From positions 244 to 45,737 of the forward strand of contig CAJTMQ010000005.1 in the NCBI GenBank assembly GCA_910577215.1: DNA of 45,494 bases, read 5' to 3'. Below the pieces are notes generated by a model. It saw nothing but the letters and a program-made list of their open reading frames with translations, did not search any database and was not told where the DNA came from. This stretch comes from an uncultured Eubacterium sp. (GTDB lineage: Bacteria > Bacillota > Clostridia > Oscillospirales > Acutalibacteraceae). Below, in pieces: positions 6,012 to 42,423 of this stretch; position 1 is the first letter of the stretch; every line of letters begins with the position of its first letter. The position numbers and the translations under genes were made by a program.

Positions 6012-6188
6012 ATGTGTGAAAGAAAAACTATTAAAGAAGATGAGCTTGATATAGTGTTTGCTAAAGCAGCAGATTTAGTTATACAAAAAAAGAAGTTAAA
6101 AGGTGTTCCTATTTCCAGATATGATATAAAAACAAAAAGAGCTTATTTGGAATATCCGGACGGAAGGGTCGTTTATGCCGAAGCCTGA
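6012..6188 (+). CDS. Small 58-aa protein absent from the ORF track, putative antitoxin/partner of the downstream kinase
   Basis: Manually translated: MCERKTIKEDELDIVFAKAADLVIQKKKLKGVPISRYDIKTKRAYLEYPDGRVVYAEA*. Has a good RBS and promoter, and its stop overlaps the start of 6175 by 14 nt. Confidence 0.8.
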   Translation: MCERKTIKEDELDIVFAKAADLVIQKKKLKGVPISRYDIKTKRAYLEYPDGRVVYAEA

Positions 6189-6756
6189 AATTGTTGTAAT
6201 TGCCGGTCCGAATGGTAGTGGAAAAAGCACTTATACAGAATTTATCGTAGGACCAAATCAATTTGCTGATGAATCATTTGAGTACATTAATGCTGATGAT
6301 ATTCAGAAATCCACAAATTGCGATGCATTAGATGCGGCTGTTTTAGCAACCGAAAAAAGAGAAACTGCATTAAAAGAAAAAAGAAACTTTGCTTTTGAAA
6401 CAGTTCTTTCGACCAGAAGGAATTTAGACCTTTTGATAAAAGCAAAGGAGCAGGGATATTTTATAAGATGTTTTTACTTTCTTACCGCAAACGCTTCAAT
6501 TAATGTTCACAGAATTAATTCAAGAGTTGAGGAAGGTGGGCATGGAGTACCCGAAGAAAAAATCAGATCCAGATATGCCAAGGCACTGTCCTTAATTCCG
6601 GAATTAGTGAATGTGTGTGATTCATTAAATGTTTGGGATAACTCAACTGAAAAGCCGTACAGAATTTTTAGAAAGAAAAAAGATTGTATTGATATTTTTG
6701 AAAATCCTATTTGGGATATGGATGAGATTGAAAAATTAACAAGAATTAATGATTAA
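6175..6756 (+). CDS. Zeta-toxin-like / AAA_33 P-loop kinase (COG4185-like)
   Basis: Walker A AGPNGSGKST, INADDI, FAFETVLS, RVEEGGHGVPEEKIRSRY, WDNS. Confidence 0.85.
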   Translation: MPKPEIVVIAGPNGSGKSTYTEFIVGPNQFADESFEYINADDIQKSTNCDALDAAVLATEKRETALKEKRNFAFETVLSTRRNLDLLIKAKEQGYFIRCFYFLTANASINVHRINSRVEEGGHGVPEEKIRSRYAKALSLIPELVNVCDSLNVWDNSTEKPYRIFRKKKDCIDIFENPIWDMDEIEKLTRIND

Positions 6757-7330: not shown

Positions 7331-8761
7331 ATGAAAAGAAAAAATATTGTTTTAGCTGGAATAGTTATATTTGTTGCTTTGGTTTTAGTTATATTTATTG
7401 TTATCAATAGTCGTCCGAAAACTTATAATAGTAATACAATAAATGGAGCGAATGTTGAACATATTAGTAATGTTGATGTTGAGATTACAACCCAGATTCA
7501 TAAAACAGAAGTTCCTGATGGATATATCGGAATATATACAGTTGATGATTTTGAATACATTAGAACAAATCCGTCTTATAATTATATCTTAATGAATGAT
7601 TTGGATTTTTCGGATGTTACAGATTGGAAATCTCCTAATATTAAAAGTATGTTTGATGGTAATAATTATTCAATAATGAATTTTATGCAAAATACATCAT
7701 TGTTCAGTGTTTGCTATGGAACAATACAAAATTTGAATATGCAAAACATTGAAATCAGTGGTAAATCCATACTTTGTAGAGAGTTGTCAGCATACTACCA
7801 TGATGATGAGAATCATTTATATCCAGGAACATTGAAAAATTGTAATATTGAAGGAAAAATAAATTATGCAGTAACGGATGCTGAAAGTGACGTAGTCAAT
7901 GTTGGAGGAATCATTTCATATGCAAAAGGTGATCCTTCTAATTCGGAAATAAGCCCAATAATAGACGATTGTATTTTCAATGGTACTATAAGTGTAACAT
8001 ATGCATTCGATAATTATTTCCAGAATAATAGCACCCATTTATTAATAGGCGGTATTGTTGGATTTATTGATGAGGGCACAATTTCTAATTGTATAACTGG
8101 TGGAAAAATAACATATAACGAAACTAACATGGAAAACAACTGGGACAATCTTTTGGCAAATATTGGTGGAATTGCAGGAAGTACTGGATACGGAACAATA
8201 GAAAATACCAAAAATGAAATTAACATTGTATCAAATAGTGAATCTATAAATGCGGCTGGAATTGTTGGACTTGTAGGTAAGCAATTAAAATCAACTGTAA
8301 TTAGCGGATGCTGCAATTTAGGAAACATAACTTTGCAAGAAAAGTATAGTGGATCGGTTATAGATTCGTCTATAAAAGCAGGTGGAATTATTGCGAATTA
8401 TGATTATCCGTATTTGCCTACTATTTACAATTGTTATAATTCGGGAAGCATAACAGCTAATAACGTTGGAGGATTGTCATGTTGTTCAGCAAATTTAAAA
8501 TTCTGTTATAATATTGGTGAAATTAAAGGAACAAATAAAGCGGGAGCTTTGCTTTGTGATAAAAATGAAAATATTGAATATTGTTATTCTCTCAATAATG
8601 GTGTTGATGTTACAAGTGATGGCGGCAAATATCCTTATGTTAAAGTACTTTCGGAAGAAGAAATGAAAAATCAATCTTCGTTTGAATGGTTGAATTTTAA
8701 TGATGTTTGGACTTTTTCAGACGGCGAATATAAGTATCCCACATTAAAAAATTGTCAATAG
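7331..8761 (+). CDS. Membrane-anchored extracellular GLUG-motif (beta-helix-like) repeat protein
   Basis: N-terminal MKRKN plus a hydrophobic anchor. YILMNDLDFS...FDGNNYSI head motif. Repeated (V/I/A)GGI(V/I/A)G units with I.NC.N.G.I spacers. C-terminal EEMK..SSFEWLNFNDVW...YPTL. Confidence 0.75.
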   Translation: MKRKNIVLAGIVIFVALVLVIFIVINSRPKTYNSNTINGANVEHISNVDVEITTQIHKTEVPDGYIGIYTVDDFEYIRTNPSYNYILMNDLDFSDVTDWKSPNIKSMFDGNNYSIMNFMQNTSLFSVCYGTIQNLNMQNIEISGKSILCRELSAYYHDDENHLYPGTLKNCNIEGKINYAVTDAESDVVNVGGIISYAKGDPSNSEISPIIDDCIFNGTISVTYAFDNYFQNNSTHLLIGGIVGFIDEGTISNCITGGKITYNETNMENNWDNLLANIGGIAGSTGYGTIENTKNEINIVSNSESINAAGIVGLVGKQLKSTVISGCCNLGNITLQEKYSGSVIDSSIKAGGIIANYDYPYLPTIYNCYNSGSITANNVGGLSCCSANLKFCYNIGEIKGTNKAGALLCDKNENIEYCYSLNNGVDVTSDGGKYPYVKVLSEEEMKNQSSFEWLNFNDVWTFSDGEYKYPTLKNCQ

Positions 8762-8770
8762 TATATAACT

Positions 8771-8800
8771 AAAAGAATCCCTCTGTGAGGGATTCTTTTT
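8771..8800 (+). terminator. Rho-independent terminator
   Basis: AAAAGAATCCCTC-tgt-GAGGGATTCTTTTT. Confidence 0.88.
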
Positions 8801-8863
8801 ACATTTAAAACCATTTTGGCGAATATGCCCAAAAACAATTTTTATTTTTGTTGCCAATATTGA

Positions 8864-8892
8864 TTGCGATAAATTTCATACTATGTTATAAT
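8864..8892 (+). promoter_or_regulatory. sigma-A promoter of the SCP2/aminotransferase/transketolase operon
   Basis: TTGCGA-17 nt-TATAAT with an extended -10 TG. AAGGAGG RBS precedes the TTG start at 8939. Confidence 0.72.
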
Positions 8893-8938
8893 TTTATCAA
8901 ATATAAAATTTTTATAAACTGCACAAGGAGGAATTAAT

Positions 8939-9703
8939 TTGAAAGAAGCAAAAGCAATGGCATATGTGAATATGTATGGCGTACTTGCAACTCTTGAAAA
9001 CCTTTGTGAAATAGATGATGAGGCGAAAGCAGTATTAAGCACCCTTAAAAAGCCTGTTTCACTTTGCTTTGATGTTGCAGGCGGTCCTTGCTGCACATTT
9101 AATTTTACGAAAGACGGATGTAAAATGACAGAAGGTACTGTTGGTTGTACCTGCAAAATGAATTTTGCATCACCCGAAAAGTTCAATGCTCTTATTGACA
9201 ACAGCAAGCCGGGTGTTCCTGTAAAGGGAATAGCTCAGGTACTGTCCTTCCTTTTAGGTCCGTTCACGAAGCTTACAGACAGGCTCACAAAGCTTTTAAT
9301 GCCGAATGAAGAGGATTTGAAGGACAGAGCATTCTTTGAGGAATCCACTGTTTTAACATTTTACACAATTGCAGGTGCAATTTCTGCTCTTGCAAATTCA
9401 GATTCTATATCTATGTTTACGGCACAGAGCACGGTAGACGGCTCCGTTTTAATGGGTATTAAGGATACCTGCTATGCAACAATCACCGTAAGAAATCATG
9501 AGTTCAAAACAATTAAGGAAAAAACAGCCGCTCCAAGAGCAATTATGGAATTTGCCGATATTGATTTGGCATATGGATTGTTTACAGGCACCGTGTCAAC
9601 GATTGCCGAGCTTTGCAAGGGCAATATACATATGGCAGGCATGATTTCCATGGTAGATAATCTGAACCGTATATTAGACAGAGTTGCCGCTTATCTTGGT
9701 TAA
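8939..9703 (+). CDS. Hypothetical protein with two SCP2 (sterol carrier/lipid-binding)-like domains
   Basis: TTG start with AAGGAGG RBS. The C-half pattern (ATITVRNHEF...IMEFADIDLAYGLFTGTVS....LCKGNIHMAG..SMVDNLNRIL) resembles the SCP2 fold, and the N-half has a similar pattern. Paralogous to 12974-13771. The fold call is by eye. Confidence 0.55.
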   Translation: MKEAKAMAYVNMYGVLATLENLCEIDDEAKAVLSTLKKPVSLCFDVAGGPCCTFNFTKDGCKMTEGTVGCTCKMNFASPEKFNALIDNSKPGVPVKGIAQVLSFLLGPFTKLTDRLTKLLMPNEEDLKDRAFFEESTVLTFYTIAGAISALANSDSISMFTAQSTVDGSVLMGIKDTCYATITVRNHEFKTIKEKTAAPRAIMEFADIDLAYGLFTGTVSTIAELCKGNIHMAGMISMVDNLNRILDRVAAYLG

Positions 9704-9720
9704 TGTTGGAGGATGATAAT

Positions 9721-11001
9721 ATGAGTAAATTTCCTGAATATAAACACGAAAAAAGCCAGGAATGGTTTAACAGAGCACTTGATGCCATTCCGTCAGGTGT
9801 ATATGGTCATTTAGGTCCGAGTGAGGGCTTGTTTCTCCCCATCACCAAATGGCCTTTAATGTCACAGAAAGCTAAGGGTACATATTTCTGGGATGTAGAC
9901 GGTAATAAATATCTTGATTTAATGTGTGCTTACGGTCCCAACGTTCTCGGCTACTGCGATGATGATGTTGATGCTGCTGCTATGGAGCAGCTCCGAATCG
10001 GAAACTGCACAACCTCACCATCATATAAAATGGTAGAATGTGCAGAAATGCTTAAGGATACCGTTGCAAGTGCGGATTGGGCATTCTTTATGAAAAACGG
10101 CTCTGATGCAACAACCTTCTCCGTTATGTGTGCAAGAGCACATACGGGCAAGAAGAAAATGCTGTTTCTCAAGGGCTACTATCACGGTGATTTCCAGTGG
10201 GCGCAGAAGATGGACTATCCGGGTATTCTTCCTGAGGATGTTATGCATAATGTTGTAGTTCCGTGGTTTGATATTGAAGCACTTAAGAAGGCTTATGATG
10301 AATGCGGCGGAGATGTTGCAGGTCTTATTGCACAGCCTTATGACCACGGCAACTTTAAGGATAATGAGTGCGCTACAAAGGATTATTGGCAGCAGGTTCG
10401 CAAATTCTGTGACGAACGCGGAATAGTTCTTATTTTTGATGATGTACGTACAGGCTTCCGCCTTGATATTGCAGGTTCGGATCATTATTACGGAATCAAG
10501 GCAGACCTGATCTGCTTCTGTAAAGCTCTTGCAAACGGATACAATATGTCTGCCGTTTGCGGCGGTGAGCATATGAAGGCAACTGCATCATCTGTTACAT
10601 ATACAGGCTCTTACTGGATGAGTGCTGAGCCGTTTGCGGCTTGTCTTGCATGTATTCCGAAAATGAAAAAACTTGATATTCCTAACCTCTTCCGTAAGGT
10701 CGGAACAAAGCTTACACAGGGCTTTGTTGATGCAGGTAAGGAGCACGGCTTTAATCTTGTTGTTTCGGGTGAACCCGCACTGTTTTATTTAAGAATAGCG
10801 AATGATGACAGCTTAATGCTTCATCAGGAATGGATTGCGGAATGTGTTTCAAGAGGTCTTTTCCTTGCATCGCACCACAATCACTTTATTAATGCTGCAA
10901 TCACAGACGAGGATGTGAAGCTTGCGATTGATATTGCTGAGGATGCTTTCAGCGTTGTTCAGGCGAACCATCCGGAGCTTGATTTATCACCAATCAAATA
11001 A
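9721..11001 (+). CDS. Class III PLP aminotransferase (glutamate-1-semialdehyde aminotransferase-like fold, probably a different substrate)
   Basis: AKGTYFWDVDGNKYLD, YGPNVLG, KNGSDA, GYYHG, LIFDDVRTGFR, ADLICFCKALANG (PLP Lys). A GGAGG RBS supports the ATG at 9721; an alternative ATG at 9703 overlaps the upstream stop. Confidence 0.85.
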   Translation: MSKFPEYKHEKSQEWFNRALDAIPSGVYGHLGPSEGLFLPITKWPLMSQKAKGTYFWDVDGNKYLDLMCAYGPNVLGYCDDDVDAAAMEQLRIGNCTTSPSYKMVECAEMLKDTVASADWAFFMKNGSDATTFSVMCARAHTGKKKMLFLKGYYHGDFQWAQKMDYPGILPEDVMHNVVVPWFDIEALKKAYDECGGDVAGLIAQPYDHGNFKDNECATKDYWQQVRKFCDERGIVLIFDDVRTGFRLDIAGSDHYYGIKADLICFCKALANGYNMSAVCGGEHMKATASSVTYTGSYWMSAEPFAACLACIPKMKKLDIPNLFRKVGTKLTQGFVDAGKEHGFNLVVSGEPALFYLRIANDDSLMLHQEWIAECVSRGLFLASHHNHFINAAITDEDVKLAIDIAEDAFSVVQANHPELDLSPIK

Positions 11002-11019
11002 TTTTTAGGAGGAAATCTT

Positions 11020-11913
11020 ATGCCAGCAAATTTTAAGCCGTTTGATAAGGAAGAATGGCTTCGTCTTGAAAAAAAGGCAGATGAATTAAGGCGCCTTACC
11101 GTTAAAACAGCAGTTTGGGGCGGTTCGGGTCACATCGGCGGTGCAATGAGTGCCATGGATGCCATGACAATTCTTTACCACCGTTTTATGAAATTGGATG
11201 TTAATAATCCCGATATGGAGGACAGAGATCGTTTTGTTCTTTCAAAGGGTCATTCGGCAGTAGGATATGCTCCCGTAATTGTTGATTACGGCTTTATGCC
11301 TGAGGAAGAGCTCCATATCTTTAATCTTACAGGTGCAAAAATCGGTATGCATCTTGACTGCAATAAGGTTAAGGGTGTTGACTGCTCAACGGGTTCACTC
11401 GGTCACGGAATTTCTCTTGCAGTTGGCTTTGCTCTTGCAGGCAGAGTAAACGGCATAGACTATATGAATTATGTTATTACAGGTGACGGCGAGCTTAACG
11501 AGGGCTCCAACTGGGAGGCTGCTATGAGTGCCGCTCAGTTCAAGCTTTCAAATGTTGTTGTTCTTTGTGACATCAATAAATGTATGATTGACGGCAGGGT
11601 TGACGATGAAATGAAGGTTGAACCTGTTGATAAAAAGTTTGAAGCATTCGGCTTCAACGTTATCCGTGTTAACGGTCACAATATGAAGGAACTCAATGAT
11701 GCAATTGAGGCTGCAATCAAAAATCATCAGGACGGCGGAGATAAGCCTACTGCTATTGTTATGGATACAATCAAGGGTGCAGGTGTTGACTTTATGGAGG
11801 ATAATTACCTCTGGCATTACGGCTCACTTGACGAAGCAATGGTAGAAAAAGCAACCGCATCACTTGATCATTATTATAAGGCTCGTTGCGAGCGTGCAGA
11901 AAAGGAGGCATAA
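11020..11913 (+). CDS. Transketolase-like enzyme, N-terminal (ThDP-binding) subunit
   Basis: SGHIGGAMS, DRFVLSKGH, STGSLGHG, ThDP motif GDGELNEGSNWEA...DIN, VNGHN, TIKGAGV..ME...WH. Confidence 0.92.
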   Translation: MPANFKPFDKEEWLRLEKKADELRRLTVKTAVWGGSGHIGGAMSAMDAMTILYHRFMKLDVNNPDMEDRDRFVLSKGHSAVGYAPVIVDYGFMPEEELHIFNLTGAKIGMHLDCNKVKGVDCSTGSLGHGISLAVGFALAGRVNGIDYMNYVITGDGELNEGSNWEAAMSAAQFKLSNVVVLCDINKCMIDGRVDDEMKVEPVDKKFEAFGFNVIRVNGHNMKELNDAIEAAIKNHQDGGDKPTAIVMDTIKGAGVDFMEDNYLWHYGSLDEAMVEKATASLDHYYKARCERAEKEA

Positions 11914-11917
11914 GAAT

Positions 11918-12928
11918 ATGGGCGGAATGACATATACTATGACAGATACAACCAAACTCTCAACAGCTGAGTGTTATGGTATTGCACTTTGCGAGCTTGG
12001 TGAAGAGCACAAGGATGTTGTTGCTCTTACTGCGGATCTTGCAAAATCAACCAAAATCGGTATGTTCGGCGAGCAGTTCCCTGAGCGTTTCTTCAACGTT
12101 GGTATTGCGGAGCAGAATCTTTTCGGTGTTGCGGCAGGTATGGCTAAAAACGGTCTTGTGCCTTTTGCTTCAACATTTGCTATTTTTACAGCAGCCCGTT
12201 CTTTAGACCAGATTCACACGGACATCTGCTATCAGAATGTTCCTGTTAAAATTATTGCAACACACGCAGGCACCTCCTTCGGTCAGGCAGGCTCAACGCA
12301 CCATTCGCTTATTGATATGGCTTGTATGAGAAGTTTGCCGAATATGACCGTAATCTGCCCCTGTGACGGTGCGGAAACATATCATGCAGTTAAGGCTGCA
12401 TATGACATTGAAGGTCCTGTTTACATTCGTATTAACCGCGGCTTTGATCAGGTTATTTATAAGAATGTTGAGGACTGCAAATTTGAATGGAATAAATCCA
12501 CCCTTATGAATGACGGTACGGATATTACCGTTATTGCCTGCGGCTCCTGTGTGTTTGAAGCAATGCAGGCTGCACGTATAGCTGAGGCAGATGCAGGTCT
12601 TAAGGTTAGAGTTATTAATATGCATACAATCAAGCCTGTTGATGAAGAGGCAATTATGAGTGCAATTATGGATACACGCCGTATCATAACTGCAGAGGAT
12701 CACGAGGTTATGGGCGGTCTTGGCTCTGCCGTTGCAGAGGTTGTTGCAAAGTCAGGCAAGGCTTGCGCATTTAAAATGCTCGGCCATCAGAATGCATTTT
12801 CAACAATCGGTCTGCAGGAGGATTTGCTTGCTATGGCTAAAATTGATGCAAACGGTATTGCCGAAGCAATTCAGGAAATGATGCATGCCGATTTTGAAGC
12901 AGATGATGCTTGGGATGACGAATTCTAA
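11918..12928 (+). CDS. Transketolase-like enzyme, C-terminal (pyrimidine-binding + C-terminal) subunit
   Basis: ADLAKST, FPERFFNVGIAEQN, PFASTFAIF, GPVYIR, MHTIKPVD, EDH..GGLGSAVAE. Start re-set to the ATG at 11918 after AGGAGG. Confidence 0.92.
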   Translation: MGGMTYTMTDTTKLSTAECYGIALCELGEEHKDVVALTADLAKSTKIGMFGEQFPERFFNVGIAEQNLFGVAAGMAKNGLVPFASTFAIFTAARSLDQIHTDICYQNVPVKIIATHAGTSFGQAGSTHHSLIDMACMRSLPNMTVICPCDGAETYHAVKAAYDIEGPVYIRINRGFDQVIYKNVEDCKFEWNKSTLMNDGTDITVIACGSCVFEAMQAARIAEADAGLKVRVINMHTIKPVDEEAIMSAIMDTRRIITAEDHEVMGGLGSAVAEVVAKSGKACAFKMLGHQNAFSTIGLQEDLLAMAKIDANGIAEAIQEMMHADFEADDAWDDEF

Positions 12929-12973
12929 ATTTTCAGTTTCAGTATTATTTGTTTATGAAAGGAATGTGTTATT

Positions 12974-13771
12974 ATGTCTTCTGATGAAGCTCGTTACACC
13001 AATAAGGTGTTTATGGCAGGCGCTCTGCCGCTTATGAAAACTATTGCAACCGATGTTCCTGAGCTTGCTAAGAAATTTGCGGGTGTTCATGCTGTTTATC
13101 AGGTTTCCGCAAAGGTAAATGCACAGGATAAGGAGGCCGTTCACTTTATTGTTGAGGACGGTGAATGGTCCTGCAAGCTTGGTGAATACTTCGGTCAGCA
13201 GAAAATTGATGCAGAGCTTGAATTTTCATCAATTGAAAAGATGAACGCTTTTATGAAGGGCGATATGTCTAAGCTTCCGAAAATGAAAATTAAGTCTTTA
13301 TCTAAATTTGTTAAGTTTATGGCTGTGCTCCTTAAAATGAGCAGCCTTCTCGGCATTAAAGAACCTCCTGAAAATGATGAGGAAACTTCGGTGCTTCTTT
13401 GTAAGCTTTATTTCTATCTTCTTTCAAGCGGTATCAGCCAGCTTAACAAATTAGGTCATCCTGCTATTCATGAATGGACTCTTAAATCGCCCGACCGCTG
13501 TTATCAGTGGGAGGTTGTGGGTCATCCCGAATGCACAGCGTATATCCGCATTAAAGCAGGAAAATCACGTGCAGGCAGGGGAGAATACAAAAGAGCAAAG
13601 CCGTTTTTCTGTATGAAATTTGATACACCTACGTCGGCTCTTAAAATTCTTCTCGGTACAGGCGATATGTTCCAGATGACTGCTGATAAGCAGCTTATGA
13701 TGGAGGGTGGTCCTGAGTTTGGTGTTCAGATTGGTGACTATATGATGGTTGTAGGCGATCTTGCAAAATAA
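12974..13771 (+). CDS. Hypothetical protein with two SCP2-like domains (paralog of 8939-9703)
   Basis: VHFIVEDGEWSCKLG...DAELEFSSIEKMNAFMKG and AYIRIKAGK...CMKFDTPTSALKILLG.GD.......QLMMEG, both SCP2-like patterns. AAAGGA RBS. The fold call is by eye. Confidence 0.55.
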   Translation: MSSDEARYTNKVFMAGALPLMKTIATDVPELAKKFAGVHAVYQVSAKVNAQDKEAVHFIVEDGEWSCKLGEYFGQQKIDAELEFSSIEKMNAFMKGDMSKLPKMKIKSLSKFVKFMAVLLKMSSLLGIKEPPENDEETSVLLCKLYFYLLSSGISQLNKLGHPAIHEWTLKSPDRCYQWEVVGHPECTAYIRIKAGKSRAGRGEYKRAKPFFCMKFDTPTSALKILLGTGDMFQMTADKQLMMEGGPEFGVQIGDYMMVVGDLAK

Positions 13772-13826
13772 AAATAAGAGCCTGACTTACCATAGGCAAG
13801 TCAGAATCCCGATAACCGATAAAATT

Positions 13827-13858
13827 AACACCGTTGTTTTTAAAACAACGGTGTTTTT
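13827..13858 (+). terminator. Rho-independent terminator closing the five-gene operon
   Basis: AACACCGTTGTTT-tta-AAACAACGGTGTT-TTT. An extra imperfect hairpin (CTGACTT..AAGTCAG) lies at 13782-13804. Confidence 0.85.
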
Positions 13859-13861
13859 ATG

Positions 13862-13889
13862 TTGATTTTATTCTAATAATTGGTATAAT
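13862..13889 (+). promoter_or_regulatory. sigma-A promoter for pyk operon
   Basis: TTGATT-16 nt-TATAAT with an extended TG. GAGGTG RBS precedes 13921. Confidence 0.65.
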
Positions 13890-13920
13890 AACATTGTCTG
13901 ACAAACTATGAGGTGAAAAA

Positions 13921-15354
13921 ATGGATAAATACAAAAGAAAAACTAAAATAATTTGCACAGTCGGTCCGGCATCCTGTGAAAAGGATGTGCTTGAAGAGCT
14001 TATGCTTTCAGGAATGAATGTTGCACGTTTTAATTTCTCTCACGGAGAATTTGAAACCTTCAGCAGGTGGTATAACAATGTAGTTGAGGTTCGTGAGAAA
14101 CTCGGTCTTCCCGTTGCAACTCTGCTTGATACAAGAGGACCTGAAATTCGTCTTGGAAAATTTGCGGATTCCAACGGCGTAACAGTCAAAAAAGGAGATA
14201 CCTATATTCTTACGGCTGATGATGTTGAGGGCAATTCGCAAAGATGCTCAATTTCTTACAAAAGACTGCCGCAGGAAATTAAGAAGGATACAAGAATTCT
14301 TATTAATGACGGTCTTGTTTCTATGACGGTAACTTCAATTCAGGATAAAGATATTGTTTGTGTGGTTGATGACGGCGGCGTGCTTTCTAATCACAAGGGT
14401 GTTAATGTGCCCAATGTCTCACTTGCTATGCCGTATCTTTCCGAAAAAGATATGCAGGATTTGAAATTCGGTGCGGAAATGGGCTATGATTTTATAGCTG
14501 CTTCATTCTGCAGAACAGGTGCAGATATTGCTTATCTTCGTGATTTCTGCCATGCTCTCGGCTGGAATGATGTAAAAATTATTGCCAAGATTGAGAATCA
14601 CGAGGGTGTAGATAATATAGACGGCATTATTAAAGAGGCAGACGGAATAATGGTTGCCCGCGGTGATATGGGTGTTGAAATTCCGTTTGAAAAAATACCG
14701 TCACTTCAGAAAATGATTATTCATAAAGCATTTGAGGCGGGAAAAATTGTTGTTACGGCAACGCAGATGCTTGAATCGATGATAAATAATCCTCGTCCTA
14801 CAAGGGCGGAAATTACAGATGTAGCAAATGCAATTTATGACGGTACTTCAGCCATTATGCTTTCGGGTGAAACCGCTATGGGTGCACATCCTGTTGAGGC
14901 AGTTAAAACAATGGCATCAATTGCCGAAACAACGGAGCAGGATATAGATTATATTGATGCATTTGAAAAGGATGTGCCAAGGCATGGGAAAAGAGATATT
15001 ACCTCTGCTATTTCACATGCAACGGTTACAACGGCTCACGATTTGAATGCTAAAGCAATTATTACGGTTACGAAAAGCGGTACAACCGCTAGGCAGATTT
15101 CAAAATACAGGCCAACCTGCCCGATTATTTCCGCAACAACAAGTGATAAGGTACGCAGGCAGAATAATCTTTCATGGGGTGTTATTCCCGTTATGTGTGA
15201 TGAAAAATCAAATACAGATGAGCTTTTTGAACACGCTGTTGAGGTTGCACTTGAGACGGGTATAATCAAAAAAGGGGATATAGTTGTCATTACGGCGGGT
15301 ATTCCGCTCGGTCAGAGCGGCACAACAAATATGCTGAAAGCACACGAGGTTTAA
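13921..15354 (+). CDS. pyk: Pyruvate kinase
   Basis: RKTKIICTVGPAS, ARFNFSHG, DTRGPEIR, IIAKIEN, DGIMVARGDMGVE, ATQMLESM, PTRAE. Confidence 0.98.
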   Translation: MDKYKRKTKIICTVGPASCEKDVLEELMLSGMNVARFNFSHGEFETFSRWYNNVVEVREKLGLPVATLLDTRGPEIRLGKFADSNGVTVKKGDTYILTADDVEGNSQRCSISYKRLPQEIKKDTRILINDGLVSMTVTSIQDKDIVCVVDDGGVLSNHKGVNVPNVSLAMPYLSEKDMQDLKFGAEMGYDFIAASFCRTGADIAYLRDFCHALGWNDVKIIAKIENHEGVDNIDGIIKEADGIMVARGDMGVEIPFEKIPSLQKMIIHKAFEAGKIVVTATQMLESMINNPRPTRAEITDVANAIYDGTSAIMLSGETAMGAHPVEAVKTMASIAETTEQDIDYIDAFEKDVPRHGKRDITSAISHATVTTAHDLNAKAIITVTKSGTTARQISKYRPTCPIISATTSDKVRRQNNLSWGVIPVMCDEKSNTDELFEHAVEVALETGIIKKGDIVVITAGIPLGQSGTTNMLKAHEV

Positions 15355-36837: not shown

Positions 36838-37668
36838 TTATATTTTTAGATGTTCTCTGTATGCCTTAGGGGTTTCATTATATTTGTGCTTAAAGGCAGT
36901 AATGAATGCGGATGCAGATGTATAGCCGCACCGCACGGCACATTCTTGGGCAGATATATTTTCCTGTTCAAGCATTGTTGCTGCCATTGCCATTTTAGCT
37001 TCATATCGCAGCTTTTTAAAGGACGAGCCGTAGTAATCCTTTATTATGCGTTCGGCCTGACGGGGGCTTACACCCATATTTTTTGCAAAATCATCAAGCG
37101 TAACATTGCTGCAATCTTCCAGCAGAAGCTGATCGAGTATCCACGAACGGCTTTCGTTCAAGTCTCCGTCCGACAGTGAGCTTGCGGAGCTTGTTTCATC
37201 AGGAAAATATAAACGTGTTATTTCAACAATCAGTCTTATTGTAAGGGAGGAGAGAATACTCTCCTTCAGAAGTCCGTTACTTTCATTTTCCTCAACCATA
37301 GTTTTAAAGATATGGCGTACAGCGGCATTGCTTTTTCCTATCCAGAAGGCTTTTGAAGTGAATAATTCAACAGCTCTGTCTGTATTTTTAGAATTAGGGA
37401 TTTTCAGATAAATACATATTTCGTGCATAGGATTTTCTGTATCGGGCGTCTGCTTGTGCAGTGTATTCGGTCCTGTAATATAAAAGGTATTTTTAACTAA
37501 ATTGTATTTTTTATCTGCTGTTTCAAGAATACCCTTGCCGTCATCTATTAAATGAAGCTCATATCCGTTTTTAGGGTGCGAATGCATAGGTACAATTTCT
37601 GTCAGTGTGTCGGAGAAAACTTTAAATATCTGTATTTTATTTCCATTGAAATGAAAGGTTATTGCCAT
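36838..37668 (-). CDS. AraC family transcriptional regulator
   Basis: N-terminal cupin (HSH...YELH.I..GKG...GP..LHKQ). C-terminal double HTH (TLDDFAKNMGVSPRQAERII...A.RCGYTSASAF..AFK). Confidence 0.93.
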   Translation of the reverse strand: MAITFHFNGNKIQIFKVFSDTLTEIVPMHSHPKNGYELHLIDDGKGILETADKKYNLVKNTFYITGPNTLHKQTPDTENPMHEICIYLKIPNSKNTDRAVELFTSKAFWIGKSNAAVRHIFKTMVEENESNGLLKESILSSLTIRLIVEITRLYFPDETSSASSLSDGDLNESRSWILDQLLLEDCSNVTLDDFAKNMGVSPRQAERIIKDYYGSSFKKLRYEAKMAMAATMLEQENISAQECAVRCGYTSASAFITAFKHKYNETPKAYREHLKI

Positions 37669-37745
37669 AAAATCACCATTTTTATTAACTCAAAATTATT
37701 TTAACATCAATTATATATATAATCAAGCATTAAATTTATATTAAA

Positions 37746-37809
37746 CGACATTAAAAATGCTTTTTTGTCGGATAAATGTCTTTTCATAATAAGAAAAAAG
37801 CATTATACT
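37746..37809 (+). promoter_or_regulatory. Putative activator-dependent promoter and AraC binding site for the glycosidase operon
   Basis: CGACA-N15-TGTCG inverted repeat (37746-37770) and a second TGTC 11 nt later. Weak -35 TTTTCA-17 nt-TATACT (37804-37809). Confidence 0.45.
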
Positions 37810-37845
37810 GAATGATGAAAGATATTTAACTGATGAGGTGATTTT

Positions 37846-39210
37846 ATGAAGATTGCCGTTATAGGCGGCGGGGGAGTCCGCTCAATGTTTCTGGCAAAAA
37901 GTATTGCCCAAAAGGCTGAAAGGCTTCATATTGATGAGCTCTGCTTTATGGACAATAATGAGAAGAAGCTGAAAATATACGGCGGTATGGCAGCGCACGT
38001 TGCAAGCTTGCTCTGCCCTGCACTCAAATTTACATTAACAACCGATGCTGTTGATGCTGTAAGGGATGCCGATTATGTTATAACCACAATTCGTGTCGGT
38101 GAGGATGATATGCGTGCAAAGGATGAACGTATTGCACTCGGAAAAGGAGTTCTTGGTCAGGAAACAACAGGTGCGGCAGGTTTTTCCTTTGCTATGCGCA
38201 GTGTGCCTGCTCTTGCAGAATACTGTGAGCTTATAAAAAAGTATTCCAAAAGAAATGTAAAGGTGTTTAACTTTACAAATCCCGCAGGTGTAGTTTCACA
38301 GACTTTAAGAGATATGGGCTATGATTTTACCTATGGAATATGTGATGCACCGTCAGGTATGCTTCGTTCCTTTGCTCTTCTTTATAATGAATCACCTGAT
38401 AATATCAGCGGAGAAGTTTACGGGCTTAATCATCTGTCCTATTTTAAAAGTATCATTCTTAACGGCAAAGAAATTATGAATGAGCTTATTGAAAATGATG
38501 ATGCTTATATAAAAACAGATATGCGTTATTTCAGCAAGGAGCTTCTCAGGGACAGAAAGAGTGTTTTAAACGAATATCTCTATTATTTCTATTACAGAGA
38601 GCAGGCAGTTGAAAATATTTTAAAGGCGGAGCAGACGAGGGGCGAACAGATTCGCGACATTAATAAGCATATGACCGCTGAATTATCCGCAATGGATATT
38701 GAAAATGATTTTGAGGGCTGCCTTAAAGTGTTTGAAAGATGGTATGGTATGCGTGAGGGCAGCTATATGGCAAGTGAAACAGGTGTTAAGCGTACGGCTC
38801 CGTGGAAATTTGATATGTATGAGGAGGATGACGGCGGCTACGCAGGTGTTGCTCTTAAATTTATAGAAACTGCGCAGAGCGGTACAACAGGCACAATGAT
38901 TATGTGTATTCCGAACAACGGCTCAATAAACGGACTTCGTGATGATGATGTTGTTGAAATCACCTGTGATGTTAATGCAGATGGCTGCACACCTCATTAT
39001 ATAGGTGATGTTGACGAGCAGAATCTTGAAATGATAAGACGCGTTAAAATTTATGAACGCTTATCATCAAAGGCTATCAGGGAAAAGGATAGGGCTGCGG
39101 CAGTTCAGGCGCTTACACTGCACCCGCTTGTAAATTCCTATTCACTTGCAAAAGAGCTTGTTGATGAATTTATTGAACACAATAAGGCTTACAGTTCGGA
39201 CTGGAAATAA
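37846..39210 (+). CDS. Family 4 glycoside hydrolase (NAD+/Mn2+-dependent, 6-phospho-beta-glucosidase-like)
   Basis: KIAVIGGGG, ADYVITTIRVG, GQETTGAAG, NFTNP, GICD (metal Cys), GLNH, GGYA, N.G.I.GL.DDDVVE, AL.LHPLV. Confidence 0.9.
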   Translation: MKIAVIGGGGVRSMFLAKSIAQKAERLHIDELCFMDNNEKKLKIYGGMAAHVASLLCPALKFTLTTDAVDAVRDADYVITTIRVGEDDMRAKDERIALGKGVLGQETTGAAGFSFAMRSVPALAEYCELIKKYSKRNVKVFNFTNPAGVVSQTLRDMGYDFTYGICDAPSGMLRSFALLYNESPDNISGEVYGLNHLSYFKSIILNGKEIMNELIENDDAYIKTDMRYFSKELLRDRKSVLNEYLYYFYYREQAVENILKAEQTRGEQIRDINKHMTAELSAMDIENDFEGCLKVFERWYGMREGSYMASETGVKRTAPWKFDMYEEDDGGYAGVALKFIETAQSGTTGTMIMCIPNNGSINGLRDDDVVEITCDVNADGCTPHYIGDVDEQNLEMIRRVKIYERLSSKAIREKDRAAAVQALTLHPLVNSYSLAKELVDEFIEHNKAYSSDWK

Positions 39211-39228
39211 AGAAAAGGGGAATTCATT

Positions 39229-42200
39229 ATGGGTAAGAAAAAGATTTATACTGTTGCAACGGCGCATCTGGATACAATCTGGAGCTGGGATTTTGAAACA
39301 ACCGTTTCAAAATATATTTACAATACACTTGTTGATAATTTTAAGATGTTTCAGAAGTATCCAACCTACAAATTCAATTTTGAGGGCAGCTACCGCTATG
39401 AGCTTATGGAGGAATATTATCCTGAGCTTTTTGAAAAGGTGAAGGAATATGTTAAAGAAGGCAAATGGAATATATGCGGTTCTGCTTTTGAAAACGGAGA
39501 TACCAATATTCCTTCTCCGGAAGCACTTTTCAGAAATATTCTTATAGGTAATTCTTATTTTGATAAAACCTTCGGCAAAAGAAGTGTGGATATTTATCTG
39601 CCCGACTGCTTCGGCTTCGGATGGGCACTTCCGTCAATCGCAAAGCACGCAAATCTGAAAGGCTTTACAACACAGAAGCTCGCATGGGGTTCTGCATACG
39701 GAACGCCGTTTGATATAGGCAAGTGGTACGGTGTTGACGGTGAGCACATCTATGCAAGTGTTAATCCGCACGACTATTATTTTACTTTAACAAAGCTTCG
39801 TGATTGGGATTTGGTTCAGAACAAGCTTAAGGAAAATGAAAAGTATGACCTTGACTGGACATATATGTTCCACGGCATAGGTGACAGGGGCGGTGCACCT
39901 AAAGAGAAATCAATTGCCTATGTTGAGGGTGAGGTTAAGAAAAACGATACGGAGGATATTGAGGTTTATGTGGCAACTGCCGATGAAATTTACCACGATA
40001 TAGATAATAAATTAACAGATGAACAGAGGGCTAAGCTTCCTGAATGGAAAACAGAGCTTGTTATGCAGAATCACGGTGTCGGAGGGTACACTTCACGTGC
40101 AGTCGGCAAACGCTGGAACAGACGCTGTGAGGAACTTGCAGATATAGCTGAAAGAAATTCGGTTGTTGCTTCCTATCTTGGTACTGCTGATTACAACAGT
40201 GATGTTCTGAACCGCTCGTGGAAGCGTTTTATTGCACACCAGTTCCACGATGATATGCCGGGCACCTCTGTTCAGCGTGCTTACCGCAGAAGCTGGAATG
40301 ATTATGCAATGTCTGCCAATCAGTTTGCAGGCGAGCTTGAAGCAGCCGCAGCATCTGTATCAACACTGATGAAAACAGATTTCTGCAGCGGTATGCCGAT
40401 TATGGTATCCAATCCTATAGAGGCAGATATTCACGGAGCAGTTACAATCCGTCTTGAGAATATAAAGCAGCCATATGTAAGAATTTATGATGATGCGGGC
40501 AAAGAGGTTAAAAGTCAGATTAAATCAGACAAAAACGGAATTAAGGAAATTGTTTTCATTGCTGATGTTAACAGTCTTGGCTATCGTATTTATGATGCAC
40601 GTCCGAGTGCAGAGCCCTGCAAGGTTAAAAGTGAAATTTCCATAAATTCGGATAATGTTATGGAAAACCAGAAATACATAGTAACTCTCAATAAAAAGGG
40701 AAATATTACTTCAATTCTTGATAAAACACAGGATGAGCTTGAAATCCTGAAAGAGCCTGTGGTACTTGGGCTTTATAATTACACAGGCTCAAAGGATTGG
40801 CCTGCATGGGAAATGAATTATGAAGAGGCAAATAAGGAAGCAGACAGAATACCCGAGCTTGTAACAATCAGCGTTGAAGAAAACGGACCTGCAAGAGTTG
40901 CCTTTAAGGTTGTGCAGCAGGATAATAATAAACGCTCACAGTTTTCAAATATAATTGCATTAACGGACGGTGGCGAATGTGTTGAGGTTTATTCCGAGAT
41001 TGAATGGCAGAATCTCTGCACACTTGCAAAGAACAAATTTGCGTTTACCTGCTCAAATGAAAAGGCAACATTTGATTTGGGCTTCGGTGCAATTCAGCGT
41101 GAGAATATGAATGAAAAGCTTTTTGAAGTTCCTGCACAGAAGTGGGTTGATATAACAGATAAAAGCGGTGATTTCGGTGTTTCCGTAATCAGCGAATGCA
41201 AGTACGGCTGGGATAAGTTCAGTGATAACACACTCAGAATGACTGTTCTGCACACGCCTAAAAAGAATTACAGAATAGATTCGATGCAGTCTATGCTTGA
41301 TATAGGTCTGAACAGATATTCGTTTGCAATCTTCAGCCACAGCGGTCAGGTTGGTGAAGCTACTCAGCTTGAGGCACGAAAGTTTGTTCAGCCTATGACT
41401 GCTTTCCTTGCCGAAAAGCACAGCGGTGCACTTAAGTCACATTACAGCTTCGGCAATGTTTCAACAAATGATGTTATTATCCGTGCAATCAAAAAGGCAG
41501 AGAACAGTGATGAAATTATTGTTCGCCTTAATGAGGGTTCAAATAAAAGCGTAGATCATTTTACACTTGAGCTTGGCAGCGGTATTGAAGCTGCACGTGA
41601 AGTTTTTGCAAGTGAAGAGGAAAAGAGAAGTGCTGTTATTGAAAACGGCAGGCTTGTTACAAGCTTTAAGCCTTATGAAATCAAAACCTTCGCAATCACC
41701 TTAAAAGAAAGTGCTGTTAAGGGCAAAAAGTCTGTTTCCTCTCCTACAGATGTTAAATTTGATAAGAATATAATCACCGCACAGGGTGCGGAAAAATCTG
41801 ATTTTGAGTATAATATTCCTCGTGAAATCACACCTGATCATGTTACTGTAAACGGAATTGATTTTGCAATTTCAAAAACAGATAAAAATGCATTTGTTAT
41901 GAATGGTCAGACAATCCGTATTCGTGAAAATGCAGACAAATTGTGCCTGCTTTGTGCAGCTCTTAATGATGATAGGAAGGTTACCTTTGATGTGGACGGC
42001 ATGGCAGTTTCAAAGAATATTTTAAGTGCTTCACAGGCATTTGCCGCGTGGGATCTGCCGGATCTTGGCGATACGGCATATGTGAAACGGGGAAAGCTCG
42101 GCTTTGAAGCAACGCACAGCCATGTTAACGGAAATGATGCTGTTGCCAGAGGTATGTATTTCTATATTGCAGAAATAGATGTTAAGGGCAAAAAAACAGT

Positions 42201-42423
42201 TACACTTCCGTATGAAAAGGATATTGTTGTTATTTCCGCGGCAGAGTATCACGGAACTGACAGCAAGCTGATTACGCCTGTTTTTGACGAGGTTGACGAA
42301 AACAGAAAGCAGACCTTTTCATTAACACTTAAAGAATATCTTCGGTATGAATATTATAAATGTGTATGGAATTTGAATGACAGGGATAATTTCCTTTCTC
42401 ACAGAAACAAAGGAAGAAAATAA
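39229..42423 (+). CDS. Family 38 glycoside hydrolase (alpha-mannosidase)
   Basis: AHLDT.W.W (Zn ligands), YLPDCFG (nucleophile Asp), G.GDRGG, QFHDDMPGTS, FEVPAQKWVD, KYG, IKKAE. No signal peptide. Confidence 0.92.
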   Translation: MGKKKIYTVATAHLDTIWSWDFETTVSKYIYNTLVDNFKMFQKYPTYKFNFEGSYRYELMEEYYPELFEKVKEYVKEGKWNICGSAFENGDTNIPSPEALFRNILIGNSYFDKTFGKRSVDIYLPDCFGFGWALPSIAKHANLKGFTTQKLAWGSAYGTPFDIGKWYGVDGEHIYASVNPHDYYFTLTKLRDWDLVQNKLKENEKYDLDWTYMFHGIGDRGGAPKEKSIAYVEGEVKKNDTEDIEVYVATADEIYHDIDNKLTDEQRAKLPEWKTELVMQNHGVGGYTSRAVGKRWNRRCEELADIAERNSVVASYLGTADYNSDVLNRSWKRFIAHQFHDDMPGTSVQRAYRRSWNDYAMSANQFAGELEAAAASVSTLMKTDFCSGMPIMVSNPIEADIHGAVTIRLENIKQPYVRIYDDAGKEVKSQIKSDKNGIKEIVFIADVNSLGYRIYDARPSAEPCKVKSEISINSDNVMENQKYIVTLNKKGNITSILDKTQDELEILKEPVVLGLYNYTGSKDWPAWEMNYEEANKEADRIPELVTISVEENGPARVAFKVVQQDNNKRSQFSNIIALTDGGECVEVYSEIEWQNLCTLAKNKFAFTCSNEKATFDLGFGAIQRENMNEKLFEVPAQKWVDITDKSGDFGVSVISECKYGWDKFSDNTLRMTVLHTPKKNYRIDSMQSMLDIGLNRYSFAIFSHSGQVGEATQLEARKFVQPMTAFLAEKHSGALKSHYSFGNVSTNDVIIRAIKKAENSDEIIVRLNEGSNKSVDHFTLELGSGIEAAREVFASEEEKRSAVIENGRLVTSFKPYEIKTFAITLKESAVKGKKSVSSPTDVKFDKNIITAQGAEKSDFEYNIPREITPDHVTVNGIDFAISKTDKNAFVMNGQTIRIRENADKLCLLCAALNDDRKVTFDVDGMAVSKNILSASQAFAAWDLPDLGDTAYVKRGKLGFEATHSHVNGNDAVARGMYFYIAEIDVKGKKTVTLPYEKDIVVISAAEYHGTDSKLITPVFDEVDENRKQTFSLTLKEYLRYEYYKCVWNLNDRDNFLSHRNKGRK

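Follow-up and report, generated by a model that had tools for sequence, protein, structure and literature searches.

Asp469 of transketolase (Escherichia coli TktA numbering) binds the C2 hydroxyl of the aldose and the C4 hydroxyl of the ketose. In the excerpted text of one study, Arg358, Ser385, His461 and Arg520 are assigned to the substrate phosphate, and His26, His100, His261, Asp469 and His473 to the sugar hydroxyls (PMC11387542). TktA variants at Asp469, Arg358 and Arg520 (D469T and others) have been engineered, and excerpts of the reports state that a small or hydrophobic residue at position 469 creates a hydrophobic surface and improves the acceptance of non-hydroxylated aliphatic and aromatic aldehydes (PMC10787763, PMC7661550, PMC13663882). 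The D469T enzyme, as excerpted, has such a surface and accepts propanal, and Arg91 contacts the substrate carboxylate (PMC10787763). Natural split transketolases substituted at Asp469, including pQR2809 with the equivalents of L382A and D469L, have already been tested as biocatalysts, according to the excerpts of one of these reports (PMC13663882). In the solved split enzyme of Carboxydothermus hydrogenoformans (6YAJ/6YAK; PMC7661550), the PP domain lies on a chain apart from that of the Pyr and TKC domains. Here we analyse a 45 494-nucleotide stretch of DNA (the window; contig CAJTMQ010000005.1, positions 244 to 45 737) from an uncultured Eubacterium sp. and describe in it a five-gene operon, whose split transketolase has Ala at the positions of both Arg358 and Asp469 and probably cuts or builds sphingosine-like lipids, not sugars.

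The window belongs to a genome of 1.73 Mb, and the part of the window outside the operon carries housekeeping genes. The operon comprises, in this order, unkA, the gene for an aminotransferase resembling the fumonisin-catabolic enzyme FumI, the two transketolase genes TK-N and TK-C, and unkB:

8939–9703, forward strand: unkA, SCP2-like protein of 254 amino acids, paralogue of unkB; TTG start at 8939, with an ATG at 8957 as the alternative
9703–11001, forward strand: FumI-like class-III aminotransferase of 432 amino acids; Pfam Aminotran_3, E 2.1e-36; 6hbs, E 6.8e-82
11020–11913, forward strand: TK-N, PP-domain subunit of 297 amino acids; Pfam Transketolase_N, E 4.3e-46; 6YAK N chain, E 4.4e-64
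11918–12928, forward strand: TK-C, subunit of 336 amino acids with Pyr and TKC domains; Pfam Transket_pyr, E 1.5e-43, and Transketolase_C, E 2e-24; 6YAJ, E 1.4e-81
12974–13771, forward strand: unkB, SCP2-fold protein of 265 amino acids, apparently with two SCP2-like halves; AlphaFold2 model with a predicted local distance difference test score (pLDDT) of 93.2 and a predicted template-modelling score of 0.89

Our literature search, which had subscription journals outside its coverage, found no paper on this operon or on a lipid transketolase, and none among the papers listed that links FumI to a transketolase.

The TK-C open reading frame (ORF) begins with an ATG at 11918, preceded by GGAGG 8 nt upstream, and ends with the stop codon at 12926–12928. 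The first-pass annotation, made by eye, had placed the loss of the phosphate-binding Arg in an STAECYG motif and that of the hydroxyl-binding Asp in a GQAGSTHH motif, and both readings are found in the frame. The first motif occurs in KLSTAECYG, with a gct codon for Ala, and the second, with Ala replacing Asp, lies within THAGTSFGQAGSTHH. The four motifs reported as retained, ADLAKS, THAG, GIAEQ and YIRINR, are likewise all present. The positions that distinguish the subunit are:

11966–11968, forward strand: codon of Ala17, at the position of the phosphate-binding Arg358, from phmmer and MAFFT alignment
12278–12280, forward strand: Phe121, which replaces Val/Leu466, from alignment
12281–12304, forward strand: GQAGSTHH, with Gln123 at the Glu468 site, Ala124 at the Asp469 site (12287–12289), His128 at the His473 site and His129 in place of Gln474
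12890–12925, forward strand: acidic C-terminal tail (D325, F326, E327, D329, D334, E335) with the invariant Trp332, not present in canonical split transketolases

The equivalence to Arg358 and Asp469, previously judged by eye, holds by three separate comparisons. In phmmer alignments STAECYG pairs with IATREAYG and GQAGSTHH with GEDGASHQ of 6YAJ, and the same two motifs pair with IATRKAYG and GEDGPSQ of human transketolase. A MAFFT alignment that includes TktA from the E. coli K-12 record, its numbering checked (356–362, ASRKASQ; 465–474, GLGEDGPTHQ), pairs A17 with R358, S44 with S385, E65 with E411, H116 with H461, A124 with D469, H128 with H473 and R174 with R520. The AlphaFold2 model of the TK-C monomer (pLDDT 83.1) superposes on 6YAJ with a template-modelling (TM) score of 0.89–0.92 and a root-mean-square deviation (rmsd) of 2.3–3.1 Å, and on donor-bound human transketolase with an rmsd of 2.0–2.1 Å over about 312 columns, in both cases without rearrangement. 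Thus, Ala17 and Ala124 occupy the positions of TktA Arg358 and Asp469. The C. hydrogenoformans enzyme, whose cofactor and His residues are identical to those of the window enzyme, has its own Arg and Asp in these two motifs. The window enzyme differs from it further in about a dozen family-specific pocket changes, in an N-terminal extension and in the acidic Trp tail. The extension carries a conserved G3/T5/T7 pattern (G-x-T-x-T; 11918–11941) that is missing from canonical split transketolases. The tail and the extension are both modelled with low confidence in the monomer; in the tail, pLDDT falls below 50 at residues 334–336 and averages 66 over residues 321–330. The tail and the extension may contact the partner chain or the SCP2-like proteins.

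Relatives of the operon were collected in three scans. A scan of one genome per species gave more than 590 relatives, the best 80 loci of which form the close set; a second, started from a representative of 55% identity, gave a distant set whose 80 loci come from Actinomycetota, Spirochaetota, Bacillota, Bacteroidota, Desulfobacterota, Myxococcota and other phyla; and a third scan, a control seeded with a sister-group representative, gave 19 further cassette-type loci and 61 other split transketolase loci. The syntenic sequences of the close and distant sets with at least 85% coverage number 159 TK-C orthologues, or 178 with the 19 further loci. Among the 159, the Asp469 site is Ala in 157 and Gly in two, and never Asp; the Arg358 site is Ala in 148, Ser in four, Asn in three, Gly in one, Thr in one and Arg in two. 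The 19 further loci (18 of them with unkB) have Ala in 16 and Gly in three at the Asp469 site, again with no Asp, and two keep Arg358, so that among all 178 orthologues Asp469 occurs in none and Arg358 in four. Co-occurrence of the two changes in syntenic homologues, a check proposed in the first-pass annotation, holds across this set; in the sequences sampled, both are fixed across at least seven phyla. By comparison, all 30 canonical split transketolases of the same class have the Arg and the Asp. The 61 control loci show Asp in 54 and Arg in 59 (two could not be read), and at none of them was a match to unkA, unkB or the aminotransferase found.

The two changes are not equally specific. In a quick alignment of the 150 nearest representatives of 50%-identity clusters, Asp469 is present in 94 and absent in 54, and 29 of these 54 keep Arg358; only 18 of the 150 lack both Asp469 and an Arg or Lys at position 358. 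A FastTree phylogeny of 140 rows (109 of the 150 representatives, at 295–350 amino acids, with 22 of the 159 cassette enzymes, eight of the 30 canonical enzymes and the query) places the cassette enzymes in one clade of 26 rows with a support of 94, nested in a 59-row clade (support 99) of non-canonical subunits, mostly without Asp469. Since this larger clade and the cluster representatives share it, the loss of Asp469 is old and common, and in this tree the loss of Arg358 is the more specific mark of the cassette clade and its sisters. The first-pass annotation had taken the substitutions as independent evidence for a lipid substrate; the Asp469 change is weak evidence of that kind, because it marks a large clade of non-canonical transketolase-like subunits. 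The sister-group representative (P0122, locus L197, from a metagenome-assembled genome of Proteobacteria) comes with TK-N, TK-C and an unkB-like gene; its Asp469 site is Gly and its His461 site is Leu. Its locus shows only a weak aminotransferase match, downstream, and is a further cassette variant.

Loss of two canonical substrate-binding residues is also what a decaying or non-catalytic paralogue would show. This explanation is scarcely credible here, because no other operon protein is as well conserved as TK-C (its median identity is 93% among the 80 close loci and 59% among 79 distant ones, compared with 78% and 31% for unkA), every cofactor-binding and catalytic residue is invariant, both substitutions are in turn fixed across phyla, the reading frames are intact, and contigs from RNA libraries cover the gene. 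A pseudogene is ruled out by this conservation and RNA cover. Four genes in the window's own genome match Transket_pyr: TK-C, a canonical split transketolase, a DXS gene and a divergent DXS-like gene. The canonical enzyme, on another contig, has TRDSYG and GEDGASHQ; the operon enzyme is thus an extra paralogue, and the canonical split transketolase is kept for sugar metabolism. A DXS-like function of the operon enzyme is ruled out by its two chains and its retained His100, and the genome has its separate DXS and DXS-like genes. The DXS-like protein (590 amino acids; L004, G000:C20:12642-16100, ORF 628–2400) reads FGMNDVTHLG, compared with GxDGxTHxG of DXS, and so lacks the Asp too; the normal DXS gene (L003) lies on a different contig from it.

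The remodelling of the pocket extends well beyond the two residues first reported. Family-specific positions were defined as differences between family and canonical sequences at 80% conservation or more, in a C-chain MAFFT alignment of 90 family sequences, 30 canonical split transketolases and E. coli TktA, and in an N-chain set that compares 85 family rows against 30 canonical ones and TktA. In TK-N, these positions are Asn102 (Arg91; 11323–11325), Met110 (Gly99; 11347–11349), Leu112 (Pro101; 11353–11355), His129 (Gln118; 11404–11406), Met189 (the Ser188 site, which is Gln in split transketolases; 11584–11586) and Tyr267 (Gly262; 11818–11820), and Met110 and Leu112 flank His100. In TK-C, they include Ile47, Leu80, Thr101-Asp102, Gln106, Ile113, Phe121 (the Leu466 site), His129 (the Gln474 site) and Gly175-Phe176, where LA has become GF directly after Arg520. 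In these alignments Arg91 is thus lost and hydrophobic residues stand at the sites of Gly99, Pro101, Ser188, Gly262 and Leu466, and these changes too are fixed across phyla. No new conserved basic residue was seen among the family-specific positions of the PP and Pyr domains, in a check at the level of sequence.

The catalytic apparatus is kept. TK-N retains H38, H78, H111 and H266 (equivalent to H26, H66, H100 and H261) and G155-D156-G157 with N186, invariant in the family rows, and over 85–90 family rows the Mg/ThDP (thiamine diphosphate) motif, E411, H26, H66, H100, H261 and H473 are all invariant. The pair of subunits therefore has what defines a split transketolase, namely the Mg/ThDP-binding PP domain, a Pyr domain with E411 joined to TKC, and the His cluster, while its phosphate-binding set (R358, S385, H461 and R520) is incomplete, with R358 changed to Ala, and the Asp469 of the class is missing. 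The NCBIfam equivalog models for transketolase match only below their full-length cut-offs. We interpret these proteins as a new, widely conserved subfamily of split transketolases with a putatively rebuilt acceptor and donor channel, in an operon for which no description was found; its function is predicted from sequence. The engineered TktA variants and pQR2809 share the replacement of Asp469, which the window enzyme carries naturally, but they were made in the laboratory or, where natural, screened as single enzymes outside their genomic context, whereas the remodelling described here involves many residues, is fixed in a dedicated operon, and keeps the Arg520 that is often mutated in those variants.

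A second natural enzyme with a hydrophobic residue at this site is AniP of anisomycin biosynthesis, a transketolase-like ThDP enzyme that acts with the aminotransferase AniQ on a non-phosphorylated substrate, and in which, according to the excerpted report, Trp stands at the Asp469 position and the phosphate ligands are lost (PMC11387542). The same excerpts describe AniP as a single chain that decarboxylates an aromatic 2-oxoacid, has no His-rich motif and carries Asp for Arg520 (PMC11387542). The window enzyme, in contrast, keeps the whole His cluster and Arg520, and an AniP-like function is ruled out on these grounds. The earlier proposal of a non-phosphorylated substrate stands only in part: Arg358 is lost, but His461, Ser385 and Arg520 are invariant, and an anionic or sugar-phosphate co-substrate is possible. 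That of a variant tuned for a lipophilic substrate draws little from the Asp469 change, and is supported by the hydrophobic pocket positions, the FumI-like aminotransferase and the pair of SCP2-fold proteins.

Among solved structures, the aminotransferase is by far closest to the aminopentol aminotransferase FumI (6hbs, aligned over residues 22–430), the next best being glutamate-1-semialdehyde aminomutase (E 1.5e-44). FumI of Sphingopyxis sp. MTA144 is described, in the excerpted report, as taking the C2 amino group from hydrolysed fumonisin, an amino-polyol of sphingoid-like structure, and transferring it to pyruvate (PMC3136697). The operon enzyme is a class-III aminotransferase of FumI type and is predicted to act on a related substrate. 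Unlike the FumI/FumD pathway of fumonisin catabolism, the operon joins this enzyme to a transketolase and two SCP2 proteins, and its hosts are anaerobes.

No Pfam match was found for the window copies of unkA and unkB, but 24 of 40 unkA orthologues (best E 1.5e-10) and 16 of 37 unkB orthologues match Pfam SCP2. Comparison by hhalign identifies the two as full-length paralogues (99.4% probability, E 3.2e-21, 248 columns). With the unkB model, Foldseek gave 18 matches in the Protein Data Bank (PDB) at E 0.001 or less, those listed comprising SCP2 proteins, UbiJ-SCP2 and the SCP2-like domain of alkylsulfatases, with target TM scores of up to 0.62. Profile searches against PDB sequences stayed below threshold, reaching SCP2 at E 0.2–0.4 with unkA and giving nothing meaningful with unkB. 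By these comparisons both flanking proteins have the SCP2 lipid-carrier fold, and lipid binding is predicted.

The five genes stand in the same order in all 80 close loci, wherever the contig reaches, and the flanks vary. The order also persists in the 80 distant loci, with unkB in 77, the aminotransferase in 64 and unkA in 61. Other genes are linked to the distant cassettes: TetR in 41, a glyoxalase-family protein in 26, an old yellow enzyme (OYE)/FadH-type enoate reductase in 16, a cyclic-nucleotide (cNMP)-type regulator in eight, and aldehyde:ferredoxin oxidoreductase (AFOR) and aldehyde dehydrogenase (ALDH) in seven each. The linked enoate reductase and aldehyde-oxidising genes fit a 2-enal or fatty-aldehyde product. 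Between 16 and 26 of the 80 distant loci (L090–L128 and others, at 7.8–10.6 kb in locus coordinates) have the glyoxalase-family gene and an enoate reductase of about 700 amino acids, composed of OYE plus FAD/NAD parts, after unkB. The window's own genome has an unlinked ALDH and an unlinked OYE/FadH homologue (G000:C17:7086-8219) that is 45.5% identical over 691 of 693 residues to a cassette-linked one. AFOR was not found there by family search; a ceramidase family search of the genome also gave no match, nor did it in control genomes.

Five distant loci with a full upstream flank (L143, L150, L152, L161 and L212) are without the aminotransferase and unkA. These short cassettes have TK-N, TK-C and unkB, and their upstream partners are a short-chain dehydrogenase/reductase (SDR) with DUF362 (L143), AFOR with ferredoxin, a sigma-54 activator, a sodium:alanine symporter and an alpha/beta hydrolase (L212). 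The short cassettes suggest alternative ways to make or use the ketone.

A small polar non-lipid substrate, such as an amino-sugar, an amino-polyol or a sulfonated ketose, with SCP2-like proteins in a role other than substrate carriage, would explain why Arg520, His461 and Ser385 are kept. We regard it as improbable, since the two SCP2-fold genes are strictly linked to the transketolase across phyla, the aminotransferase is FumI-like, the pocket changes are all towards hydrophobic residues, and the 80 distant loci have no recurrent sugar kinase, isomerase or transporter.

The reading that we prefer is that TK-C is the Pyr/TKC subunit of a competent ThDP enzyme whose channel is rebuilt for a long uncharged alkyl chain and which cleaves deaminated sphingoid-type bases between C2 and C3. 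We give it a probability of roughly 0.45. It is proposed because a FumI-like aminotransferase, a pair of SCP2-fold proteins and a hydrophobic pocket occur together in a conserved cassette. The aminotransferase would remove the C2 amino group from a sphingoid-type 2-amino-1,3-diol (sphinganine, sphingosine or a relative), giving a 1,3-dihydroxy-2-ketone, which would present the ketol-donor motif of transketolase. Attack of ThDP on C2 and breakage of the C2–C3 bond would release a fatty aldehyde (a 2-enal from sphingosine), and the dihydroxyethyl-ThDP unit retained would be handed to an aldose as acceptor, which may be a sugar phosphate bound by His461, Ser385 and Arg520. The SCP2-fold proteins would hold the lipid. 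Ala at the Asp469 site would suit a donor without a C4 hydroxyl, and Ala for Arg358, Asn for Arg91 and the Met, Leu, Tyr and Phe residues gained would accommodate an alkyl chain in place of the sugar-phosphate tail. Sphingosine-1-phosphate lyase likewise cuts sphingoid bases between C2 and C3, with a C16 aldehyde or 2-enal as product, but this enzyme depends on pyridoxal phosphate, requires prior phosphorylation at C1 and releases phosphoethanolamine, whereas the route proposed here would use transamination followed by ThDP-dependent ketol cleavage.

Several observations weigh against this sphingoid-base reading. The phosphate ligands His461, Ser385 and Arg520 are invariant in the family, and an anionic substrate is thus possible. 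The loss of Asp469 is widespread among unrelated transketolase-like families. In the alpha2beta2 enzyme, a residue from another chain or from the C-terminal tail may compensate for those lost. Around the 80 close loci, TetR, VOC, OYE, AFOR and the cNMP-type regulator each occur in none and ALDH in one. The natural D-erythro sphingoid bases have the (2S,3R) configuration, but the donors and products of canonical transketolase are (3S); this mismatch would imply either an altered stereospecificity or a true substrate that is threo or another lipid. Finally, in the excerpted account of a labelled-sphinganine feeding experiment, Firmicutes, Tenericutes and Deferribacteres made up the gut cells that stayed without label (PMC7910519), which lends no support to an uptake by Firmicutes.

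In a broader set of candidates, the substrate is another hydrophobic amine or ketone: a 1-deoxy (methyl-ketone) sphingoid, an aminopolyol of fumonisin or AAL type, the base of a sulfonolipid or another long-chain 2-amino-3-ol; the bond cleaved would then be that of an acyloin, not of a 1-hydroxy ketol. The substrate of FumI itself is a 1-deoxy aminopolyol, whose threo C3 matches the preference of canonical transketolase. Arg520 and His461, being retained, could bind a distal anionic group, and the replacement of the aminotransferase by SDR and DUF362 in L143 and the alpha/beta hydrolase in L212 suggest several routes to a 2-ketone. Against these candidates, His100, His26 and His261, which bind the C1 hydroxyl, are invariant. 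His100, as excerpts of two reports state, separates hydroxymethyl-ketol from pyruvate donors, is Phe or Tyr in DXS, and when changed in the H100L E. coli enzyme allows pyruvate to be taken; enzymes for methyl-ketone or pyruvate donors replace it (PMC13663882, PMC10787763). Its retention in TK-N points to a hydroxymethyl-ketol rather than a pyruvate donor, and we consider a substrate of this broader set unlikely.

The direction of breakdown is the least certain step of the preferred mechanism. Run in reverse, the transketolase would take a C2 ketol unit from hydroxypyruvate or a ketose phosphate and join it to a fatty aldehyde, and the aminotransferase would aminate the 2-ketone, so that a sphingoid-type base would be made without serine palmitoyltransferase. 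Both reactions are reversible, so that the pocket changes suit this direction just as well; His461, Ser385 and Arg520, still present, would hold the ketose-phosphate donor; no repressor or aldehyde-oxidising gene is linked to the window operon, which is apparently expressed in vivo; and a pairing of a transketolase-like enzyme with an aminotransferase serves biosynthesis in the excerpted anisomycin pathway (PMC11387542). The operon is also near-core in its genus: 68 of 80 other species carry unkB, as do 52 of 57 high-quality genomes when the window's own is counted. Against this direction, the operon is patchy in the order at large: among 200 other genomes sampled only two have unkB, a pattern that suggests an accessory, transferable trait. 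The nearest characterised aminotransferase is moreover catabolic, and TetR, aldehyde oxidoreductases and enoate reductase accompany the cassette in other phyla. To our knowledge, no sphingolipid has been reported from these organisms, which also counts against synthesis. We therefore hold the reverse direction to be an unlikely alternative to cleavage.

Extending the cleavage reading, we tentatively propose, at somewhat less than even odds, that sphingoid bases are degraded by anaerobes of gut and sediment, in many phyla, along a previously undescribed route: transamination at C2 and then ThDP-dependent C2–C3 cleavage with a dedicated lipid transketolase, fed by SCP2-like proteins, without phosphorylation or sphingosine-1-phosphate lyase. 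The products would be a fatty aldehyde and a two-carbon unit that enters sugar metabolism. The operon is near-core in one large gut genus and apparently transcribed in the mouse gut, and on this reading it could consume a major part of the sphingolipids of diet, host and Bacteroides. If the lipid reading holds, transketolase chemistry would reach from sugar phosphates to the backbones of membrane lipids, and a microbial sink or source would be named for sphingoid bases, which are signalling lipids of the gut. In this enzyme, selection has also fixed a natural scaffold for the carboligation of long aliphatic aldehydes, a goal that engineers have approached through Asp469, Arg358 and Arg520 mutants. 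Ala at 358 and 469, Asn at 91, Tyr at 262, Phe at 466 and the acidic Trp tail provide a marker signature for the pathway in genomes. The operon is present in cultured strains, among them Lutispora saccharofermentans and Desulfosarcina widdelii, which have the TetR-linked version, and Draconibacterium aestuarii, and is thus directly testable.

Two signals bracket the span covered by RNA-library contigs:

8864–8892, forward strand: promoter-like site, TTGCGA-17-TATAAT with TG, a match to consensus only
13827–13855, forward strand: terminator-like hairpin after unkB, with a 13-bp stem and a T run

Six metatranscriptomic runs from four mouse-gut or faecal studies contain 83–95% of the sampled operon words. 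In the region compared (8400–14400), contigs from the RNA libraries start at 8930–8945 and end at 13788–13820, and there is no cover at 8400–8800. The contig from run X15 spans 8944–13820 with a depth of 68, compared with eight on the pyruvate kinase gene and zero upstream; that from run X17 spans 8930–13788, and pieces from runs X19 and X20 stop at the same borders. The coincidence of contig ends with the operon borders in separate studies hints at a five-gene transcript, with carry-over of DNA possible. The pyruvate kinase gene, with its much lower RNA cover, is the next gene after unkB. Directly upstream of the operon lies a gene for a 476-amino-acid protein with an N-terminal membrane anchor and a GLUG motif (7331–8761, forward strand), whose place beside the operon is not conserved among the 80 close loci. 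It is preceded by a 193-amino-acid ORF (6175–6753, forward strand) with weak Zeta_toxin and AAA_33 kinase-like Pfam matches (E 7.7e-8). Farther downstream, at 36841–43802, an AraC-type regulator stands beside a glycoside hydrolase (GH) of family GH4, a GH38 alpha-mannosidase and an alpha-L-fucosidase, in what looks like a cluster for the degradation of host glycans or N-glycans.

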